From positions 1-40,464 of the IMG/VR virus record IMGVR_UViG_643348545_000008: a DNA stretch of 40,464 nt. One strand, written 5' to 3'. Shown here one piece after another: positions 2,810 through 16,693 of the stretch (position 1 is the stretch's first letter; every line of letters starts with the position of its first letter). The position numbers and the translations under genes are program-made. Under the pieces are notes generated by a model, which saw only the letters and a program-made list of their open reading frames with translations, made no database searches and had not been told where the DNA came from. Origin of the DNA: a virus (Duplodnaviria > Heunggongvirae > Uroviricota > Caudoviricetes).

Positions 2810-3321
2810 GCGAGATTAATTATCAGGAAGGGCATGAAACGGCAGGGCAGGCAAAACCAGTTGCATGGCGATATCGCTACGTGAAAAAAGACGTTACAGA
2901 CTTTCAGGGGAAGCCGTGGGCTGGTGACTGGAAATATGTACCGACAAAAGAGGATTGTAACGACAGGCCGAACTATGAAATTCAGGCCTTATTCATCGGC
3001 CCGCCAGTCCCGGTGACATCAGAAGGACTGGTTAAAGCCGTGCGCTTTTATGAACAGGTAAAGCGTGAGAATCCGCCAGTCGAAACAGGAGCATGGAAGG
3101 ATGCTGTTGACTGGGTGCTCAGAGAGGCCTGCTGCGCTGCCATTCTGGGTAAAGCCGACAATCCACCAGCATCCGGCAATCAGGTTAGCGAATTAACAAT
3201 GTGGGTTAAACGACTGGTCAGTCAACTGAAAAAAGCTCAGCCGGACTGCAAATTACCGGAGAAGGCGATGGATTACCTGAAACGAAATGGACTGATAAGC
3301 GTGGAGGATGTTTTACGATGA
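2806..3321 (+). CDS. Hypothetical prophage protein (171 aa)
   Basis: Long ORF translationally coupled to the upstream small ORF. No family recognised. Confidence 0.55.
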   Translation: MSEINYQEGHETAGQAKPVAWRYRYVKKDVTDFQGKPWAGDWKYVPTKEDCNDRPNYEIQALFIGPPVPVTSEGLVKAVRFYEQVKRENPPVETGAWKDAVDWVLREACCAAILGKADNPPASGNQVSELTMWVKRLVSQLKKAQPDCKLPEKAMDYLKRNGLISVEDVLR

Positions 3322-3441
3322 ATATTTAGACTAAAGAGTTTGTAACGCTATGTAAGTGATTTTTTCTGGTTTAGATATTTATATGTCCGGCCAAATTGAG
3401 GTGTGTTTAAATGTTATTGCACATTGATTGTAGGGGGAATA

Positions 3442-3621
3442 ATGAAAAACGCATTGCAGTTTTTGTTTGTTGCGTTCTGGTTGTTCGCATCATGTATGCC
3501 CATCATCTTCACAGCAAGGTATATGGAAAAAATTGATGTTTTGATATTAATGTTTGGACATATAAATGCCCTTTTTTTAGGGGTGTTCATGGCGGTCATG
3601 TGCATTGAATACTGGCGGTAA
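3442..3621 (+). CDS. Small hydrophobic membrane protein (59 aa)
   Basis: Internal ATG preceded by an agggggaa RBS. Two predicted hydrophobic helices. AT-rich gene with an AT-rich upstream region. Confidence 0.35.
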   Translation: MKNALQFLFVAFWLFASCMPIIFTARYMEKIDVLILMFGHINALFLGVFMAVMCIEYWR

Positions 3622-3879
3622 ATACAGCGAACGCCATTGGTTTAGTTGGATATTTACTGTGCCGGACAAAAACGGTTTGCGGGGAAATCTTAGTTAAGTA
3701 GAATAACTGCGGGTGCTTGAGGCTATCTGTCTCAGGCATGAACACCAAAAGGCAGATAGAGAAAAGCCCCAGTTAACATTACGCGTCCTGCAAGACGCTT
3801 AACATTAATCTGAGGCCATATCTATGCGACACATAGAGATTAGCCTCTTACGGACCGAAAGGTCAAGGAGAAGCAGGCT

Positions 3880-4035
3880 ATGAAGCAGCAAAAGGCGATG
3901 TTAATCGCCCTGATCGTCATCTGTTTAACCGTCATAGTGACGGCACTGGTAACGAGGAAAGACCTCTGCGAGGTACGAATCCGAACCGGCCAGACGGAGG
4001 TCGCTGTCTTCACAGCTTACGAACCTGAGGAGTAA
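3880..4035 (+). CDS. hok: Hok/Gef-family type I toxin (51 aa)
   Basis: MKQQKAMLIALIVICLTVIVTALVTRKDLCEVRIRTGQTEVAVFTAYEPEE is a clear Hok/Gef family sequence. A short upstream ORF ends at ATGA overlapping the start. A terminator follows. Confidence 0.85.
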   Translation: MKQQKAMLIALIVICLTVIVTALVTRKDLCEVRIRTGQTEVAVFTAYEPEE

Positions 4036-8777: not shown

Positions 8778-8853
8778 GGCCCTTTAGCTCAGTGGTGAGA
8801 GCGAGCGACTCATAATCGCCAGGTCGCTGGTTCAAATCCAGCAAGGGCCACCA
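8778..8853 (+). tRNA. tRNA with CAT anticodon, closest to E. coli tRNA-Ile2 (ileX/ileY-like; formally Met/Ile)
   Basis: 76-nt cloverleaf with GGCCCTT/AAGGGCC acceptor stem, anticodon loop CTCATAA, TTCAAAT T-loop and encoded CCA. Confidence 0.8.
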
Positions 8854-8862
8854 TATCACATA

Positions 8863-8939
8863 CCGCCATTAGCTCATCGGGATAGAGCGCCAGCCTTCGA
8901 AGCTGGCTGCGCGGGGTTCGAGTCCTCGATGGCGGTCCA
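8863..8939 (+). tRNA. tRNA-Arg (anticodon TCG)
   Basis: 77-nt cloverleaf with CCGCCAT/ATGGCGG acceptor stem, anticodon loop CTTCGAA, TTCGAGT T-loop and encoded CCA. The discriminator base is unusual. Confidence 0.7.
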
Positions 8940-9217: not shown

Positions 9218-9646
9218 ATGTATTGCCGTGCTGTACCAGTTCTTGTTTTGATATTAGCCAGTCTGACAACTGGCTGCACAAAAGATGTATCGACAAATAA
9301 TTATGATGCTTCTCTGTATCACTCAGATAAATTAATAAAGTCGCAAAATTTGAGCTCATCGGAACGTACCCCTGATGCCAGTGAAGAAATCAGGCAGTAT
9401 GCCATTCAGGTCAGGAAAGCCATAGAAGAACAGTTAAAGGATGCGAGTAAGTATTCAGGAAAAGAGTGTTCACTGAGAATGTATATGGCCCCGAATGGTC
9501 TTCTGCTACAGGTTAAAAGAGAAAGCGGTGATCCCGATTTATGTCGTGAAGCGATGAATGCAGTAAAGAATGCTGATATACCATCACCACCGTCTTCAGG
9601 AGTATATAAAGCATTTAGAAATGGCGTGCTGGATTTTAAACTCTGA
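9218..9646 (+). CDS. Lipoprotein with TolA C-terminal (domain III)-like domain (142 aa)
   Basis: Signal peptide with lipobox-like LTTGC. Residues 55-142 align by eye with E. coli TolA domain III (GKECSLRMYMAPNGLLLQVKRESGDPDLC...IPSPPSSGVYKAFRNGVLDFK versus GKTCTLRIKLAPDGMLLDIKPEGGDPALC...IPKPPSQAVYEVFKNAPLDFK). ggag RBS. Confidence 0.7.
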   Translation: MYCRAVPVLVLILASLTTGCTKDVSTNNYDASLYHSDKLIKSQNLSSSERTPDASEEIRQYAIQVRKAIEEQLKDASKYSGKECSLRMYMAPNGLLLQVKRESGDPDLCREAMNAVKNADIPSPPSSGVYKAFRNGVLDFKL

Positions 9647-10171
9647 CAGGGGGAGAAGATTTTCTCCTGTCCTGATGATTTTGGGGCGCTGGAAAGATAT
9701 TGTGCTGTGAAGTGTTAAATTCCTCACAATTCAGTAAGTTGACAGTTGCCTGTCAGACTGAGCATTTGTTAAAAAAATTTCGCATGGTGAATCCCCCTGT
9801 GCGGAGGGGCGACTGGTGAACGGTATGATCTCTTTGATGATCGTAAGCGAGAATATGCGGGTTTAGTGTCACCGGGCTGAACTCACCGGGAGGCACCCGG
9901 CACCATGCAATGGCACATAGCGCCACTCTCCAGCCCCTCTCCGGAGGGGCTTTCTTGTGGGCAAAAAAAAAGCCCGAGTGGGTTCGGGCAACAGCATGAG
10001 ATATACATTTTTATAATCGAATGGATTTTAACCAGAATTCATAAGGCTGCGCAACTGCGCGGCCTTTTTCGTATTGCGGGCTGTAGTCTTCCTCCTGCCA
10101 TTGTCCTGTAACTTCCGGACTTCAGCCCGCCCCTCATCTGACTCACAACATTATCCCGACCGGGAGGATTC

Positions 10172-12160
10172 ATGACATTTAAACACTACGATGTGGTCAG
10201 GGCGGCGTCGCCGTCAGACCTTGCGGAGCGACTGACACAAAAACTGAAGGAGGGGTGGCAGCCATTTGGCAGCCCTGTCGCCATCACGCCTTATACCCTG
10301 ATGCAGGCCATTGCGGCGGAAGGTGATGTCACCACACCTGTGGTGGTGAAGCCGTCGGATGGAGAAGGCACAGTTATCAGCACCACCAGCGAACCGGAGT
10401 ATTACTTTGTTGTTGTTCTGGCGGGGCAGTCAAACTCAATGTCTTTTGGTGAAGGGCTGCCGCTGCCGGAGACATATGACCGTCCGGACCCGCGTATTAA
10501 ACAGCTGGCGCGTCGCAGTACGGTGACGCCGGGTGGTGCCGCCTGTAAATATAACGACATCATTCCGGCAGACCACTGTCTGCATGATGTGCAGGATATG
10601 AGTAACCTGAATCATCCTGAAGCGGACCTTAATAAAGGGCAGTACGGTTGTGTGGGGCATGCTCTGCATGTTGGCAAAAAGCTGCTGCCGTTTATGCCTG
10701 CGAATGCGGGTATCCTTCTTGTTCCATGTGGCCGTGGCGATTCGGGATTTACTGCGGGGGCCGAGGGGGCGTTTAACGCAGCGTCGGGAGCGACCGCAGG
10801 CTCGTCCCTGTGGGGGGCGGATAAACCGCTGTATTATGACCTGGTCAGCAGAACCCGTGCGGCCCTGAAGAAAAATCCGAAGAACGTGCTGTTATCAGTG
10901 ATCTGGATGCAGGGAGAAAAAGATGTCAGTTCGGGGAGACATGCAGAACACAATGCGCTTTTCCTTGCCATGGTAAATCAGTTCCGTACGGAACTGGCAG
11001 ATGTGGCAGAGCAGTGTACTGGCGGGACAACGGCCAGCGTCCCGTGGATTTGCGGTGATACCACGTACTACTGGAAGGAAAGGTATGCAGCGCCGTATGA
11101 GGCGGTTTACGGTGGGTATAAAGGCAAAGCTGCGCAGAATATTCACTTTGTGCCGTTGATGACGGATGAGCATGGTGTGAATGTGCCGACAAACGAGCCG
11201 TCAGAAGATCCGGACATTATCCCGGCGGGATACTATGGCGCTGCGTCACGCACTGCCAGTAACTGGACGTCAGCCGATCGTAAAACGCACTTCAGTTCAT
11301 GGGCGCGAAGAGGCCTTGTTTCAGACCGCCTGGCAGGTGCCATTTTGCAGTACGCCGGGCGGACATTATCGTTCCTTACCGGGCAGAGCGCACCGCAGTC
11401 GGGTGGTACAACTCCCGGTGATGATGTCAGTCCGGGGGTACCGGGTGTTGAGAAACCGCAGGATGGCGGTGTTGCTGGTACTGGTCATGATGAGGCCGTG
11501 AGCAGTACCAGGACGGTGGCTGAATATGATGCGAACAGTGGAAATGGTGTATGGACAGAGCAGCAGTGGGGGGCTGCCGGTGGCAAAGGCACTGTGACTG
11601 ATGACGGTGGACGGAAAGCGCTGCGACTGGAAAAACAGCCCGGTAAACTGACGTCCTGGAAAATGTTCTGTACTGTTGCAGTGGAGGAGGCAAAAAATCT
11701 TCTCAGCAAGGGGGGTGAAATTGCCGTACGGTTCAAAATTCCGGACGGAAGCGAACTGGTGAACGGACAGTTTGTCTTTGGTCTCTACTGGCCGGTGTCG
11801 CAGTGGGCGTCAGGCGCGGCAGCAAACAGTATGCTGGCATCATTCTTCCTTCAGACGGATGCATCAAATCTGAATCTTATGCACCACAAGGGCACGTCGA
11901 ATGCACAACTGGGTACATTTGGTGCGTTTGACCATAACTGGCATACGGTTGTTTTCCGCTTTGCGGGAAATAACAGCGAAAGAGTCGTTCCGGTGATTGA
12001 TGGTACAGAGCAGACGGCGTTTGACCTTGTGATGTGGACAAATGATGGCTTTACAGCAGATACGCTGACGCTGACAGATATCACGGGGGCAAAAGCGACG
12101 TATCCGGTACTGCTTGATACGGTCACAGTCAAAGTTAACGAAAGCCGGGCATCATCATAA
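10172..12160 (+). CDS. nanS-p: Prophage sialate O-acetylesterase, NanS-p-like (DUF1737 N-terminus + SASA esterase domain, 662 aa)
   Basis: N-terminal MTFKHYDVV...GWQPFG module. VVLAGQSNSMSFGEG serine-esterase motif. gggagga RBS. Sits between the Q-tRNA region and the lysis genes, as nanS-p does in Stx-type prophages. Confidence 0.75.
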   Translation: MTFKHYDVVRAASPSDLAERLTQKLKEGWQPFGSPVAITPYTLMQAIAAEGDVTTPVVVKPSDGEGTVISTTSEPEYYFVVVLAGQSNSMSFGEGLPLPETYDRPDPRIKQLARRSTVTPGGAACKYNDIIPADHCLHDVQDMSNLNHPEADLNKGQYGCVGHALHVGKKLLPFMPANAGILLVPCGRGDSGFTAGAEGAFNAASGATAGSSLWGADKPLYYDLVSRTRAALKKNPKNVLLSVIWMQGEKDVSSGRHAEHNALFLAMVNQFRTELADVAEQCTGGTTASVPWICGDTTYYWKERYAAPYEAVYGGYKGKAAQNIHFVPLMTDEHGVNVPTNEPSEDPDIIPAGYYGAASRTASNWTSADRKTHFSSWARRGLVSDRLAGAILQYAGRTLSFLTGQSAPQSGGTTPGDDVSPGVPGVEKPQDGGVAGTGHDEAVSSTRTVAEYDANSGNGVWTEQQWGAAGGKGTVTDDGGRKALRLEKQPGKLTSWKMFCTVAVEEAKNLLSKGGEIAVRFKIPDGSELVNGQFVFGLYWPVSQWASGAAANSMLASFFLQTDASNLNLMHHKGTSNAQLGTFGAFDHNWHTVVFRFAGNNSERVVPVIDGTEQTAFDLVMWTNDGFTADTLTLTDITGAKATYPVLLDTVTVKVNESRASS

Positions 12161-12298
12161 CCGGCAAAAAAAGCCGCCAGCGGCAGGAACGGAAGCTGGC
12201 GGAGGTAATCCCAATGGAGAATGTAAAGAAAAGATGCTTTCGTATATCGGTTTTTAAATGAAAACAGTTCTCATTGTCAACCATAACGGTAAGAAACT

Positions 12299-12481
12299 AT
12301 GACATTTGTTCATCAGGTGATGCTGTACTTCTGTACGGCAGTCTGTGTTATGTATCTTCTTTCGGGTGGGTACAGGGCAGTGCGCGATTTCTGGCGCAGG
12401 CAGATTGATAAAAGGGCCGCAGAGAAAATCAGTGCCAGTCAGTCAGCCGGAAGCAAACCTGAAGATCCGCTCATTCCGTAG
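12299..12481 (+). CDS. Small membrane protein (60 aa), hypothetical
   Basis: ORF with an N-terminal hydrophobic helix. Weak RBS. Confidence 0.3.
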   Translation: MTFVHQVMLYFCTAVCVMYLLSGGYRAVRDFWRRQIDKRAAEKISASQSAGSKPEDPLIP

Positions 12482-12518
12482 TCACTTTCTTGACAACACC
12501 TTTCAACGAGAAAATCCT

Positions 12519-12809
12519 ATGTCAGAAATAAAATCGCTGGTCACTGCTGAGGCAGTGAAGGAAGTCCTGCGCTCTGAAGAAGTCCGGAGCGCACTGAAAC
12601 AGCAACTTCGGCAGAACCTTGAGGCGCGTCTTGATGCAGAAGTGGATGCCATTCTGGATGAATTGCTTGGTGCACAGCCGGAACCATCCCCGGAACTGCT
12701 TCCGGAACCACAGGCGGAAGATGTCACCACGGAAAATGGTGATATTCAGCCGGAGTCACCGGTGACGGATATGACAGACACACAACCCGAACCGGGCACA
12801 ATGCTGTAA
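12519..12809 (+). CDS. Acidic Pro/Glu-rich hypothetical protein (96 aa)
   Basis: Internal ATG of ORF 12345..12809. Followed by a hairpin plus T-run terminator around 12823..12853. Confidence 0.4.
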   Translation: MSEIKSLVTAEAVKEVLRSEEVRSALKQQLRQNLEARLDAEVDAILDELLGAQPEPSPELLPEPQAEDVTTENGDIQPESPVTDMTDTQPEPGTML

Positions 12810-12884
12810 CGGCGGGGCAGGGCCATCAGTAAAGAGCTGGTGGCCCTTTTGTTGTTGTGAGCTTCCGAGTACGGGAGACGGGGT

Positions 12885-13100
12885 ATGTACCAGATGGAAA
12901 AAATCACAACAGGTGTGTCATACACCACGTCAGCGGTGGGAACGGGCTACTGGTTCCTGCAGTTGCTGGACAGGGTTTCCCCGTCTCAGTGGGCGGCAAT
13001 AGGCGTGCTGGGGAGTCTGCTGTTTGGTCTGCTGACGTACCTGACGAACCTGTATTTCAAAATTAAAGAAGACCGGCGTAAGGCGGCCCGGGGAGAGTAA
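12885..13100 (+). CDS. Pinholin, phage 21 S-like (71 aa, dual-start M1/M4)
   Basis: [19 protein letters not shown]...[14 protein letters not shown]...[22 protein letters not shown] closely resembles S21. Two transmembrane segments and a charged C-terminus. Confidence 0.85.
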
Positions 13101-13104
13101 AGCG

Positions 13105-14094
13105 ATGAATAAAAAATATGAACTGGTTGTTAAAGGGATAAATCATTACCCGGATAAGATAACTGTTACTGTGGCACTGGAAATTGGTGGGTATCCGTCA
13201 CTGTTGTTGCCATATGTGGCGATTAGTCTTGACCGTACTGAAGGTGCCACGCTGGAGTTTTACGAAGCTGAGGCGAAAAAGCAGGCGAAGCAGTTTTTCA
13301 TGGATGTTGCTGCCGGGTTATGTGAAGGGAACGAACCGTTGCCGGAAAAGCGCCCCGTAATTTTAGAGGCGCAGGATGTGTTGATAACCTACAAAGGAAA
13401 GCTACCGGGAAGAATTACTGATGCTCTGAAGATGCCGCCGTCAACACTGCGGTCAGAAAAAGATGATGTTGAATCACGTATTGAAAAACTGGAGCGCTAT
13501 ATCGCTGAATTGAAAAAAAGCGCCCCAACAAAAAATGAGGTGCTTGCAGCAGATGAAATGAAAGAAGCTATTCTTGATCGCGCGGCGCATCTAAGCTGCG
13601 CTTCACGGTTGAAAGAGCATCTTCAGCGGCCTGAAGAAAAACGCCGCGATGAGCAGTTTGCTGCGTTTGACGATTATTGTCGGAAAGTGATGAGCAGAAA
13701 TCTCGCAGAGTGTTTCAGTATTCATAATGATAATTTCAGTGAGCTGGAATGGGAGTGTAACCGGCCATCCTTTGTTGTATCCGGTGATGCCGGGAAAATA
13801 ACCATCTCAGAAAATGGGAAAGTAACACCTCCATCGCACCAGCACAGTGAGGAGCTCATTGAATTTGCCATTGATTACCTGAAGAACAATAAAAAGCAGG
13901 GGCTGATGAAGCGCGTTGGCCGTTGCATGGGATATCTTCAGGTAGCCGCTGAGATTGAAGCGCTGGCCAGTGGTGCTGATAAGGATGCAATTGTGCGGGA
14001 GGCTCTTCTTCGTGATTTTAATACTCCACCCTTTAAAAAAGTGCCGGCTTACTGGCTTCATCCGGGGCTGACTTATCTTAAAGTGCGTATTTAG
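13105..14094 (+). CDS. Unrecognised soluble protein inserted between holin and endolysin (329 aa)
   Basis: Long ORF with clean start, in the same orientation as the lysis genes. More AT-rich than its neighbours. No transmembrane segment or known motif recognised. Confidence 0.6.
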   Translation: MNKKYELVVKGINHYPDKITVTVALEIGGYPSLLLPYVAISLDRTEGATLEFYEAEAKKQAKQFFMDVAAGLCEGNEPLPEKRPVILEAQDVLITYKGKLPGRITDALKMPPSTLRSEKDDVESRIEKLERYIAELKKSAPTKNEVLAADEMKEAILDRAAHLSCASRLKEHLQRPEEKRRDEQFAAFDDYCRKVMSRNLAECFSIHNDNFSELEWECNRPSFVVSGDAGKITISENGKVTPPSHQHSEELIEFAIDYLKNNKKQGLMKRVGRCMGYLQVAAEIEALASGADKDAIVREALLRDFNTPPFKKVPAYWLHPGLTYLKVRI

Positions 14095-14130
14095 TGGGCC
14101 AGGGACAGCGGCTGAATATTTAATATATCC

Positions 14131-14664
14131 ATGAACACCAAAATCAAATACGGCCTGTCGGCTGCCGTTCTGGCGCTGATTGCCGCTGGTGCGCCTGCGC
14201 CTGACATTCTCGACCAGTTTCTGGATGAAAAGGAAGGCAACCACACCACGGCATACCGTGATGGTGCAGGTATCTGGACCATCTGCCGTGGTGCCATCAT
14301 GGTGGATGGCAAACCTGTCGTTCCGGGCATGAAGTTGTCGAAGGAAAAATGCGACCAGGTTAACGCCATTGAGCGTGATAAAGCGCTGGCGTGGGTGGAG
14401 AAAAACATCAGAGTGCCGCTGACCGAACCCCAGAAAGCGGGGATCGCGTCATTCTGTCCGTACAACATTGGTCCCGGTAAGTGTTTCCCGTCGACGTTTT
14501 ACAGACGAATTAATGCTGGTGATCGAAAAGGTGCCTGCGAAGCGATTCGCTGGTGGATTAAGGACGGTGGCAGGGACTGCCGTATTCGCTCAAATAACTG
14601 TTACGGTCAGGTATCCCGGCGAGACCAGGAGAGCGCGCTGGCGTGCTGGGGAATCGACAGATAA
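14131..14664 (+). CDS. SAR endolysin (T4-lysozyme fold, R21/P1 Lyz-like, 177 aa)
   Basis: N-terminal signal-anchor-release helix (LSAAVLALIAAGAPA). Catalytic E-x8-D-x5-T arrangement (EGNHTTAYRDGAGIWTICRG). Confidence 0.85.
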   Translation: MNTKIKYGLSAAVLALIAAGAPAPDILDQFLDEKEGNHTTAYRDGAGIWTICRGAIMVDGKPVVPGMKLSKEKCDQVNAIERDKALAWVEKNIRVPLTEPQKAGIASFCPYNIGPGKCFPSTFYRRINAGDRKGACEAIRWWIKDGGRDCRIRSNNCYGQVSRRDQESALACWGIDR

Positions 14665-14858
14665 GCAGAATATTTTGCTAATAAATGACGTTGGCCAAGG
14701 CGGACGGATAACACGAAATCCTGCGAACTGGCAAAATGTAAGTGAATAAAAGTAAAAACCCCGTTTGTTGGCAGCAAGCGGGGTTTTGTTTTTATGGCAG
14801 TAAGCTATGGGAGGCTGCCTTGATTGATTTTAGCAAACTGATTAGGGAGTTGCGACTC

Positions 14859-14954
14859 ATGATTAGTCAATTACCAAACTGGAAATTTTTGCTGGTCTGG
14901 AGCATCCCTTTTTTATGGGTAGTATCCCAGTTAATTGTGGCAATTAAGGGGTAG
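14859..14954 (+). CDS. Small hydrophobic peptide (31 aa)
   Basis: gggag RBS 8 nt upstream. Single predicted transmembrane helix. First of four tandem small ORFs. Confidence 0.35.
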   Translation: MISQLPNWKFLLVWSIPFLWVVSQLIVAIKG

Positions 14955-14956
14955 CT

Positions 14957-15088
14957 ATGTCAGACAAACTCATAACGCCGGCAAAGGTCCTGTGTGTGAT
15001 TGTCGGTATTTCATTTTCACTAATGCTGGTTGCTCTTTTTCTGTCCCTCGCCTGGGTGATGTTGTCTTCGTCGGGGCTGCTGGGGTGA
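14957..15088 (+). CDS. Small hydrophobic peptide (43 aa)
   Basis: ATG 2 nt after the previous stop. aagggg RBS. Single transmembrane helix. Confidence 0.35.
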   Translation: MSDKLITPAKVLCVIVGISFSLMLVALFLSLAWVMLSSSGLLG

Positions 15089-15207
15089 CAGTGACTGATG
15101 ACATCAGCAGAGCGCTGGCTTTTGCTATTAAGTGGGTGGCTGTTGGTATTGCTGTGTCTCCGATGCTGTATGGGCTGGCAAAACTGGTCATTGCGCTGAA
15201 ATCGTGA
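15085..15207 (+). CDS. Small hydrophobic peptide (about 40 aa, GTG start)
   Basis: GTGA overlap with the previous stop. Sequence ALAFAIKWVAVGIAV is paralogous to the next peptide. Confidence 0.3.
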   Translation: MTVTDDISRALAFAIKWVAVGIAVSPMLYGLAKLVIALKS

Positions 15208-15218
15208 ACTTTAAAAAG

Positions 15219-15305
15219 ATGAGTGCTGAACTTATTCGGGCAATGGCATTTGCCATTCGTATTGTGGCCATTGCTGTTCTGGTCTGGGCAATTCGTTGGT
15301 GGTGA
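15219..15305 (+). CDS. Small hydrophobic peptide (28 aa)
   Basis: AMAFAIRIVAIAVLVW is paralogous to the preceding peptide. Its stop lies 1 nt before the Rz start. Confidence 0.3.
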   Translation: MSAELIRAMAFAIRIVAIAVLVWAIRWW

Positions 15306-15306
15306 T

Positions 15307-15801
15307 ATGAACCGTGTTCTGTGTGTGGTGATTATTGTCATGCTGGTAGCCTGTGGTGCGCTTAGTCTGGGGCTGAATCATTACCGTGATAACGCCATCA
15401 CCTACAAAGAGCAGCGCGATAAAAAAGTCAGTGAGCTGGAGCAGGCAAATGCAACCATTACTGATATGCAGCAGCGCCAGCGTGATGTTGCTGCACTTGA
15501 TGCCAGATACTCGAGGGAATTAGCCGATGCGAGAGCTGAAAATGAAACTCTGCGCGCTGACGTTGCCGCTGGTCGTAAGCGCCTGCGGGTCAACGCCACC
15601 TGCCCCGGTACCGTGCGTGAAGCCACCGGCACCTCCGGCGTGGATAATGCAACCGGCCCCCGACTGGCAGACACCGCTGAACGGGATTATTTCATCCTCA
15701 GAGAACGGTTGATGACAATGCAGAAGCAGCTGGAAGGGGCGCAGGACTATATCCGCACTCAGTGCACTAAGCTGGCTTTTTATTATCCGGAGGATACATG
15801 A
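15307..15801 (+). CDS. i-spanin Rz (164 aa)
   Basis: N-terminal transmembrane helix then a coiled-coil periplasmic domain. Contains an embedded +1-frame lipoprotein gene. Confidence 0.8.
   Translation: MNRVLCVVIIVMLVACGALSLGLNHYRDNAITYKEQRDKKVSELEQANATITDMQQRQRDVAALDARYSRELADARAENETLRADVAAGRKRLRVNATCPGTVREATGTSGVDNATGPRLADTAERDYFILRERLMTMQKQLEGAQDYIRTQCTKLAFYYPEDT
15542..15712 (+). CDS. o-spanin Rz1, embedded in Rz in the +1 frame (56 aa)
   Basis: MKLCALTLPLVVSACGS signal peptide and lipobox, followed by proline-rich sequence. Entirely inside Rz. Confidence 0.7.
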   Translation: MKLCALTLPLVVSACGSTPPAPVPCVKPPAPPAWIMQPAPDWQTPLNGIISSSENG

Positions 15802-16022
15802 AGAAATTACGGGTAACCGTAGAACCTTTTCAGGGAACAATTCCGTTCCGTATTTTGCAGCGTGGTCGTGTTCTTGTTGAAGGTTCGTTCAGTGGTAAAT
15901 GTACGCAATTACACTCCCGGACCTTTCAGGTGAATGCCACGAATGAAGAGCTAACCGTGGAGTGTACGATGAATGCCGCTAAATGCCGCATGGTATCCGC
16001 TGCATTACAGCCAGTGTGTTGA
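15798..16022 (+). CDS. Hypothetical protein (74 aa), translationally coupled to Rz
   Basis: ATGA overlap with the Rz stop. No family recognised. Confidence 0.35.
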   Translation: MKKLRVTVEPFQGTIPFRILQRGRVLVEGSFSGKCTQLHSRTFQVNATNEELTVECTMNAAKCRMVSAALQPVC

Positions 16023-16360
16023 GCGACCTTATTATCCATGCGCGGTATTGTCGCCGTATTCCTGCATTAACAGAGACCGCAGCCCGACAGGGAGACTCCT
16101 CTGCGAGAGTGTGCGGGGATAATCAAAAACGATACACACCGGGGTTTACCGCGTTAACGGAGCGCGGCGTTGTCCCCTCATGGTCGCTGGTCCGGTGCGA
16201 TGGTGGAAGAAACCGGACGATGTGTTACCTCGCAAGCTCTGTTATGTCATGTGTCTGATTTGTGATTTAAGTCGGATAATTGTCGTTGCCATTAAACAGA
16301 GGATTGATGACCGACAGGGTGGCATTGTTAGAATAAGACTTATTCTTATCTGTGCCGGGA

Positions 16361-16693
16361 ATGAAAATGAAAAGAAATCTTCCGTTAATTATTTTGTTGT
16401 CTTCTCTGGTTATGGGCTGTACGCAACATAAAACAGATATGCCCCGACAGTTGGTTAAGGCATTACCACAATATCCGGCCTATGCAGCGGCAAATTATAT
16501 AAAGGGACGGGTTGATGTGAAGTTTGATATTGGTGCTGATGGTACTGTCACCCGAATTGAGTTTATCCGTTCAGAGCCGCACCATTTGTTTGATGAGCAG
16601 GTTGTAAAGGCGATGGCAAAATGGCGATTTGAGAAGGACAGGCCGTGTAAAGGCGTGAAGAAAACGTTTATCTTTAGTCCTTCTGCACCCTGA
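16361..16693 (+). CDS. Lipoprotein with TonB C-terminal-like domain (about 110 aa)
   Basis: Signal peptide with lipobox-like LVMGC. PQYPAYAAANYIKGRVDVKFDIGADGTV...FDEQVVKAMAKWRFE aligns with the TonB C-terminal domain ([28 protein letters not shown]...FEREVKNAMRRWRYE). Confidence 0.7.
   Translation: MKMKRNLPLIILLSSLVMGCTQHKTDMPRQLVKALPQYPAYAAANYIKGRVDVKFDIGADGTVTRIEFIRSEPHHLFDEQVVKAMAKWRFEKDRPCKGVKKTFIFSPSAP

Follow-up and report, generated by a model that had tools for sequence, protein, structure and literature searches.

The 990-bp ORF that separates the holin and lysozyme genes in the window (the whole 40,464-nucleotide stretch of viral DNA analysed here, an E. coli prophage) almost certainly belongs, judging from profile matches, to the YdfR/DUF1327 family of prophage proteins of enterobacteria, as an intact member of the long form. 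The gene lies on the + strand at 13105..14094, with an ATG start at 13105 and a TAG stop at 14092-14094, and encodes 329 aa. It is an accessory gene and not a fixed component of the lysis cassette, and the junction between holin (S) and lysozyme (R) in which it lies is a hypervariable slot and a recombination hot spot.

Residues 1-100 of the protein matched Pfam DUF1327 (PF07041) with an E of 4e-42 and 142.7 bits against a gathering cut-off of 25, although the earlier note, made from the sequence alone, had found no recognisable motif. The protein also matched PHROG 1085 from end to end (protein 1-329 vs profile 1-296 of 296, E 8e-181). An identical protein is public (CAR07628.1; UniRef A0A376D7Q5) and was present on 57 contigs, and RefSeq names the relatives "YdfR family protein". 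The gene had been described as unrecognised, but it belongs to a named family and is already catalogued, so it is not a discovery. All 11 PHROG matches of the protein were labelled "unknown function". The hundreds of full-length homologs, with support from the dN/dS values given below, showed that it is a real gene.

The previously claimed position of the ORF, 4 nt past the holin gene and 36 nt ahead of the lysozyme gene, was exact, and the identification of its neighbours as an S21-like holin and a SAR endolysin agreed with their Pfam matches. The upstream gene (12885..13100, +) encodes an S21-type class II holin (pinholin) of 71 aa, which matched PF04971 (Phage_holin_2_1, the phage 21 S family) with an E of 7e-33 as well as PHROG holin families, and a Met1/Met4 dual start was read directly from its sequence. 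The downstream gene (14131..14664, +) encodes a SAR-type lysozyme of 177 aa, which matched PF00959 (Phage_lysozyme, E 2e-24) and has the Gly/Ala-rich N-terminus typical of a SAR domain. The Rz i-spanin gene followed at 15307..15801 on the + strand (PF03245, E 6e-50), with the Rz1 lipoprotein ORF embedded in it at 15527-15712 and a directly read LVVSAC lipobox.

A Shine-Dalgarno-like sequence, GGGGAGAG, was found at 13090..13097 (+) within the final holin codons, followed by the holin stop TAA (13098-13100), the 4 nt AGCG and the ATG of the 329-aa gene. Comparison of the junctions of the window, Stx2_95, mEp460, Evi and the gene-less phage 75/02 Stx showed that this site serves the YdfR-family gene if it is present and the lysozyme gene if the slot is empty. 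The 4-nt junction after the holin stop was kept in Stx2_95, mEp460 and Evi, and the lysozyme of 75/02 Stx used the same 4-nt offset. In blastn alignments, homology to 75/02 Stx stopped at the ATG past the holin stop (window 13108) and restarted at window 14167, which is lysozyme codon 13. These breakpoints, together with the 4-nt start of the lysozyme gene in 75/02 Stx, mark the S-R slot as a recombination hot spot.

The spacer of 36 nt before the lysozyme ATG at 14131 (14095..14130, +) was AT-rich, and direct reading revealed no obvious Shine-Dalgarno sequence in it. The context ...AATAT(C/A)TCC-ATG was common to the lysozyme alleles linked to the YdfR family when Stx2_95, mEp460 and Evi were compared. 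In a comparison with loci L004 and L005, the YdfR-linked lysozyme alleles had in common an AT-rich leader that lacks a Shine-Dalgarno sequence, ...AAATATCC-ATG, and were distinct in their N-terminus (MNTKIKY, MSAKIKY). In the empty-slot cassettes the lysozyme was translated from the ribosome-binding site embedded in the holin gene.

A second variable slot lay between lysozyme and Rz (window 14665-15306). It contained small hydrophobic ORFs at 14742-14954, 14957-15088 and 14935-15207 (PHROGs 6632, 4906 and 3246, "unknown function") and a strong terminator-like hairpin at 14755-14787; related prophages carried ant, a methyltransferase gene or other small ORFs there. Downstream of Rz, an ORF of 113 aa (16352-16693) matched PHROG 1267 "Rz-like spanin", a label that seems doubtful given the complete Rz/Rz1 pair before it. 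In the closest relative, a gene at a similar place is named "TonB family protein" by RefSeq.

Further features were recorded upstream of the lysis genes. Rfam searches located a sok-type antitoxin RNA in the early region at 3711-3882 (RF01794, 106.7 bits), which indicates a hok/sok-like type I toxin-antitoxin locus. The Q-like region was followed at 8778-8939 by two tRNA genes with the anticodons CAT and TCG, an arrangement shared with Stx-type lambdoid phages; the CAT tRNA was called Met by ARAGORN and is called Ile in RefSeq relatives. Just upstream of the nanS-p-like esterase gene, Rfam detected the STnc100 sRNA (9753-9962, +) and the anti-stx2 sRNA AsxR (9967-10019, -), the latter with a score exactly at the gathering threshold. 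There were no stx genes at this sRNA/nanS-p-like region of the window, and the usual stx place was occupied by a 142-aa ORF at 9218-9646 (phrog_5772; "TolA" in RefSeq relatives).

The GC content of the 329-aa gene was 46.3% (GC3 0.44), in comparison with 54.2% (0.68) for the holin gene, 54.9% (0.61) for the lysozyme gene and 53.2% for the whole window; it is thus more AT-rich than the flanking lysis genes, as had been observed earlier. The search for sigma-70-like sites on the + strand from 12100 to 16300 was negative, so that the gene has no promoter-like site of its own, and a terminator-like hairpin lies upstream of the holin gene. Both features imply that the gene depends on antiterminated late transcription. 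It is near certain that it is transcribed with the late operon and translated from the ribosome-binding site at the end of the holin gene, and the co-expression with the lysis genes that the earlier note had expected is reasonable given this position and the absence of a promoter-like site. The protein has no membrane segment (highest 19-residue Kyte-Doolittle mean 1.29, GRAVY -0.45), which bears out the same note, and no signal peptide was found.

The frequency of the gene between S and R was determined in two samples. Among the phage records, 434 encode this holin type, and the DUF1327 domain was encoded in 101 of these (23%). Similarity to the C-terminal part of the protein was present in only eight of the 434, and in three of these it covered the whole of that part. 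Among the Stx phage records with this holin, DUF1327 was found in 41/47 of the Stx1a, 15/17 of the Stx2c and 2/124 of the Stx2a type. The second sample was drawn from IMG/VR contigs whose holin shares at least 97% identity with that of the window, which biases it toward this holin allele; of 80 contigs fetched, 70 included the lysozyme. The slot was filled in 58 of these 70 contigs, and 44 distinct slot sequences were present among the 70 loci. S and R were adjacent (gap 1-4 nt) in 12 contigs. The DUF1327 domain alone occupied the slot in 29, the long form with N-terminal, helical and C-terminal parts in ten (nine of 296 aa and one of 328 aa), and a C-domain-only gene of about 185 aa in nine. 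N-terminal and helical parts were combined in four contigs, and N- and C-terminal parts with a different middle in another four; one contig had a C-domain gene, a 75-aa DUF1327 gene and a reverse-strand ORF, and one had another content.

Adjacency of S and R, which had been taken as the rule in phage 21-type cassettes, is therefore not general: Qin carries ydfR at this place, and most of the slots sampled were occupied. Of the proposal that the gene is an acquired insertion, the accessory nature stood, with the gene missing from about three quarters of the phages with this holin type and lower in GC than its surroundings, while the adjacency premise did not. The variability of the S-R junction bears on the annotation of lysis cassettes and on the comparison of lysis and toxin-release kinetics among Stx phages. 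With DNA resembling the gene in 3,203 of 5,426 complete E. coli genomes (59%), at a median of two places per genome, the YdfR/DUF1327 family is extremely common; at least 80% of the gene was covered in 492 complete genomes.

An AlphaFold2 model was built from a 53-sequence alignment (mean pLDDT 72.9). The N-terminal DUF1327 domain (aa 1-75; 13105..13329, +; PF07041) was predicted, over residues 1-73, as three strands and a long helix with a pLDDT of 80-98. It was followed on the + strand by a predicted disordered linker (aa 76-115; 13330..13449), of which residues 76-112 had a pLDDT under 50 in both models, and by a helical, coiled-coil-like region (aa 116-208; 13450..13728), with predicted helices at 122-208, a pLDDT of about 72-82 and weak coiled-coil matches. 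Alignments showed that part of the helical region is variable (aa 137-183; 13513-13653, +); the common 296-aa form has 33 aa fewer there. The conserved C-terminal domain (aa 215-329; 13747..14091, +) was predicted, from about residue 217, as three strands and helices with a core pLDDT of 87-96. It contains the motifs GRCMGYLQVAAEIEA and (D/N)xPPFK...W..PG..YLK.R, and the Pfam scan assigned no family to it. The possibility that the N- and C-terminal domains (both beta3-alpha) arose by internal duplication was rejected (hhalign probability 0.4%).

The modules occur fused, split and permuted. The C-terminal domain is also part of separate proteins of 185 aa and 213 aa. In a split and permuted E. 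coli arrangement the holin gene was followed by a 213-aa gene (helical part and C-domain), a 75-aa DUF1327 gene, a reverse-strand ORF and the lysozyme gene; this order was seen in 5/5 loci examined, and the 213-aa protein is recorded for about 200 contigs. In the split loci L016 (3001-4189) and L017-L020 the reverse-strand ORF encoded 95 aa (phrog_10490, unknown function).

The range of homologs was taken from a profile search of 1.84 billion representative proteins, which returned only 112 clusters. A scan of genome contigs with one peptide pattern found two Escherichia loci only and says little about taxonomic range. Homologs with 27-30% identity, at least two of them from Salmonella enterica, retained the N-terminal, helical and C-terminal parts, and the C-domain motifs were preserved in distant homologs as GRCMGxLQxAAEIE and DNPPFK..P.GW..PG..YLK.R. 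Because the Salmonella homologs keep all three parts, sequence comparison suggests that the long form came first and that the 103-aa protein of K-12 is a truncation of it. If K-12 YdfR is a truncated remnant of a two-domain protein, as it appears to be, experiments on YdfR only may miss the function.

Distant members of the family were located outside the S-R slot. The Salmonella-type homologs followed the Q antiterminator gene, just upstream of a Phage_holin_2_3 holin or of an S21-type holin, and did not lie between S and R. In Salmonella-type prophages (L008, L011 and L106, at about 3040-3780), an opposite-strand hicA/hicB toxin-antitoxin pair was placed between Q and the homolog. DUF1327 proteins that stand alone (72-76 aa; one is from Sodalis ligni) were encoded within clusters of lambda-like tail genes, either between L and K or between M and L (for example, L103 4001-4231 and L101 4001-4219). 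Some of these genes were followed by unrelated reverse-strand ORFs. Such ORFs, which are frequent behind DUF1327 genes, were considered as a conserved partner of these genes and discarded, as they are mutually unrelated; Pfam scans of the distant homologs and of the neighbouring reverse-strand ORFs gave no consistent family. Because the distant members lie upstream of a holin gene or among tail genes, the family is not tied to lysis: it is a late-strand accessory gene found at several moron-type sites.

In comparison with the Stx2_95 copy, the dN/dS of the gene was 0.35 overall, 0.28 in the N-terminal domain and 0.18 in the C-terminal domain; both folded domains are under purifying selection. 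The helical segment had a dN/dS of about 1.3, from only 12 changes. The neighbouring genes had values of 0.06 (holin) and 0.05 (lysozyme) against the same phage. The nearest relative, with 99% identity in strain AR_0017, was frameshifted, and the gene is thus dispensable for prophage maintenance.

Searches for a function of the 329-aa protein gave no functional homology. PADLOC-DB 2.0 returned 0 families, even at E <= 10; the NCBIfam scan returned nothing meaningful; and Pfam returned nothing besides DUF1327, with no enzymatic or sensor domain. Only noise was obtained with phmmer against PDB sequences (best E 0.15), and the AlphaFold2 model had no significant structural match in PDB or BFVD. 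The PDB sequence search and the structure searches also revealed no similarity to any RNase E partner. Among the lysis-annotated PHROG families there was no match, and the protein lacks a transmembrane segment or SAR domain of the kind present in known lysis proteins. A HicB-like antitoxin fold for the N-terminal domain was rejected on an hhalign probability of 0.35% against a HicB_lk_antitox protein, a weak test with a single-sequence target. The remote homology and structure prediction that had been recommended earlier therefore found the family (DUF1327, PHROG 1085) and no functional or fold homology, and none of the three roles suggested with them (lysis regulator, cargo released at lysis, anti-phage factor) was confirmed. 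No publication on genes located between S and R of lambdoid phages turned up in a literature search, and experimental data on DUF1327 or ydfR were found solely in PMC13232886.

In that study, K-12 YdfR was recovered in a bacterial two-hybrid screen for which residues 1-72 were sufficient, and purification of Strep-YdfR brought along RNase E 1-598 as well as nucleic acid that resisted DNase (PMC13232886). Full-length YdfR gave a two-hybrid signal with only one RNase E construct, few transcripts were altered by YdfR overproduction, and YdfR was placed in the interaction class of RapZ (PMC13232886). The ydfR gene of K-12 was essentially silent, with almost no RNA-seq reads in normal growth (PMC13232886).

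On these data we tentatively favour the possibility that the window protein is a late cytoplasmic protein whose N-terminal domain docks on RNase E and modulates late RNA decay, and that it is not a lysis effector. In this model the DUF1327 domain of the soluble late protein would contact host RNase E at its N-terminal, catalytic half. The catalytic part of RNase E is a tetramer, and the central helical region would oligomerise the phage protein. The conserved C-terminal domain would offer a second putative binding surface, and the net effect might be that RNA decay or processing by RNase E is modulated late in the lytic cycle. Among the affected RNAs could be the long late transcript with the lysis genes on it; any effect on lysis timing would then be indirect.

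The model is consistent with the predicted architecture, in which folded N- and C-terminal domains are joined by a disordered linker and helices, and with the homology of the window N-domain to the RNase E-interacting region of K-12 YdfR (44% identity, aa 1-78), which is encoded at the same position between holin and lysozyme in Qin. The modules occur as adjacent separate genes in the split E. coli loci, and the distant members, in late-transcribed regions that have nothing to do with lysis, would suit a general function late in growth. The lack of a membrane segment and of an own promoter-like site, the conserved 4-nt junction, the purifying selection on both domains and the architecture retained in Salmonella count on the same side. 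On the other side, the RNase E interaction comes from the truncated K-12 paralog only, and not from the window protein or its C-domain. The N-domain is acidic (pI 5.2), which makes direct RNA binding not obvious, and the C-domain-only slot gene without DUF1327 in nine of the 70 viral contigs shows that the modules can stand alone. The frameshift in the 99%-identical relative, the two-hybrid signal of full-length YdfR with only one RNase E construct, the small number of transcripts changed by YdfR overproduction and the negative searches for similarity to an RNase E partner also speak against docking on RNase E.

A more extended form of the proposal is unlikely. It states that DUF1327 on one side and the helical and C-terminal parts on the other would form a modular two-part system, fused, split or permuted, placed in the S-R junction of S21-type cassettes and in equivalent late-operon sites of Salmonella and other enterobacterial phages, that acts as an RNase E adaptor controlling the stability of the late transcript. 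If the proposal is true, a two-part RNase E adaptor would set burst size, lysis timing and, for the Stx1a and Stx2c phages, nearly all of which would have it, the quantity of toxin set free.

It is doubtful, and less probable than docking on RNase E, that the gene is a conflict-type moron, that is, a factor for phage defence, superinfection exclusion or counter-defence whose polymorphism an arms race maintains. Its GC content below that of its neighbours, the presence/absence polymorphism and module shuffling with 44 distinct slot sequences among 70 loci, and the unrelated reverse-strand ORFs that share the slot are consistent with such a role. The several different late-region insertion sites of the family and the dN/dS above that of the neighbouring lysis genes point in the same direction, and a defence gene adjoining the holin in a Clostridioides difficile prophage provides a precedent (PMC12373285). 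However, no PADLOC model matched, which left the anti-phage role without support from that database, and the protein has no detectable enzymatic or sensor domain. Given the missing promoter-like site and the terminator-like hairpin ahead of the holin gene, expression in the lysogen is not expected, and the K-12 ydfR gene had almost no reads in normal growth (PMC13232886).

An accessory regulator of lysis timing, which would bind the cytoplasmic tail of the holin or the SAR lysozyme and delay or sharpen triggering, like T4 RIII or P1 LydB, appears somewhat less probable still. The gene directly follows the holin gene, the 4-nt junction is conserved and the ribosome-binding site is shared, and the Salmonella homologs also adjoin the lysis genes of another holin family, Phage_holin_2_3. 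Its insertion moves the lysozyme gene from a coupled start to an AT-rich leader without a Shine-Dalgarno sequence, which could alter the S:R ratio. A ydfR knockout scored in an envelope-integrity screen, according to its citation in PMC13232886, but we infer that a polar effect on the downstream rrrQ explains this result equally well. The gene is missing from most phages with the same holin type and from the 12 contigs of the 70 with a near-identical holin in which S and R adjoin, either module can come first in the slot, and the protein has neither a membrane segment nor homology to the lysis-category PHROG families. The position of the stand-alone DUF1327 genes of distant phages in tail-gene clusters, far from lysis genes, weakened the role of lysis regulator further.

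We consider it improbable that the gene is a decaying or neutral passenger, a remnant of mosaic recombination without a current function in this prophage. The frameshifted AR_0017 copy, the many truncated and fragmentary forms, and the high dN/dS of the helical segment, from those few changes, would fit decay. However, the reading frame of 329 aa is unbroken, 57 contigs encode the identical protein, the two folded domains have a dN/dS of 0.18-0.28, and the architecture is conserved from Escherichia to Salmonella at 27-30% identity. It is very improbable that the protein is a cargo released at lysis and acting outside the cell, like Stx or the upstream-encoded NanS-p esterase: it is encoded in the same late region as nanS-p and would escape at cell burst, but it has no signal peptide and no extracellular-type enzymatic or binding domain, a predicted coiled coil with a disordered linker would be typical of an intracellular adaptor, and the K-12 homolog binds a cytoplasmic enzyme (PMC13232886). 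The probability that remains falls to a function that was not foreseen.

Protein BCI50300 of the Stx2a-converting phage Stx2_95 is a full-length homolog in the same slot, with 94.5% identical DNA and identical flanks, and orf5 of the Stx2-converting phage 86 is also a full-length homolog in the same slot. The PHROG 1085 profile and most relatives represent the 296-aa form, in which 33 aa of the helical segment of the window protein are absent. PHROG 1085 and the homologs in Stx2_95 and phage 86 are all annotated as hypothetical.

YdfR of K-12 (P76160), encoded by the cryptic prophage Qin, has a homologous N-terminal domain. In the K-12-type genome, the Qin order of holin (RefSeq essD), ydfR, rrrQ and rzpQ places ydfR in the same slot, and its start is also 4 nt past the holin stop. 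The K-12 protein has 103 aa and lacks the linker, helical region and C-terminal domain that the window protein has; its stop codon overlaps the lysozyme start, whereas the window gene leaves 36 nt. Both proteins are cytoplasmic.

T4 RIII and P1 LydB are small soluble antiholin cofactors, encoded with or near holins, that tune lysis timing; they have no homology to the window protein, and the YdfR family is not confined to lysis cassettes. A link of RIII to RNA metabolism, through ribosomal protein S1 and RegB, is mentioned in PMC9409239. RapZ is an oligomeric cytoplasmic protein that contacts the N-terminal domain of RNase E, and its likeness to the window protein is a functional analogy only: its kinase-like and RNA-binding domains are absent from the window protein, and no sequence or fold similarity was detected. 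The phage-encoded proteins phiKZ Dip (gp37) and T4 Srd bind RNase E and change RNA decay in infection (PMC4980113), which gives a precedent for a phage protein directed at this enzyme.
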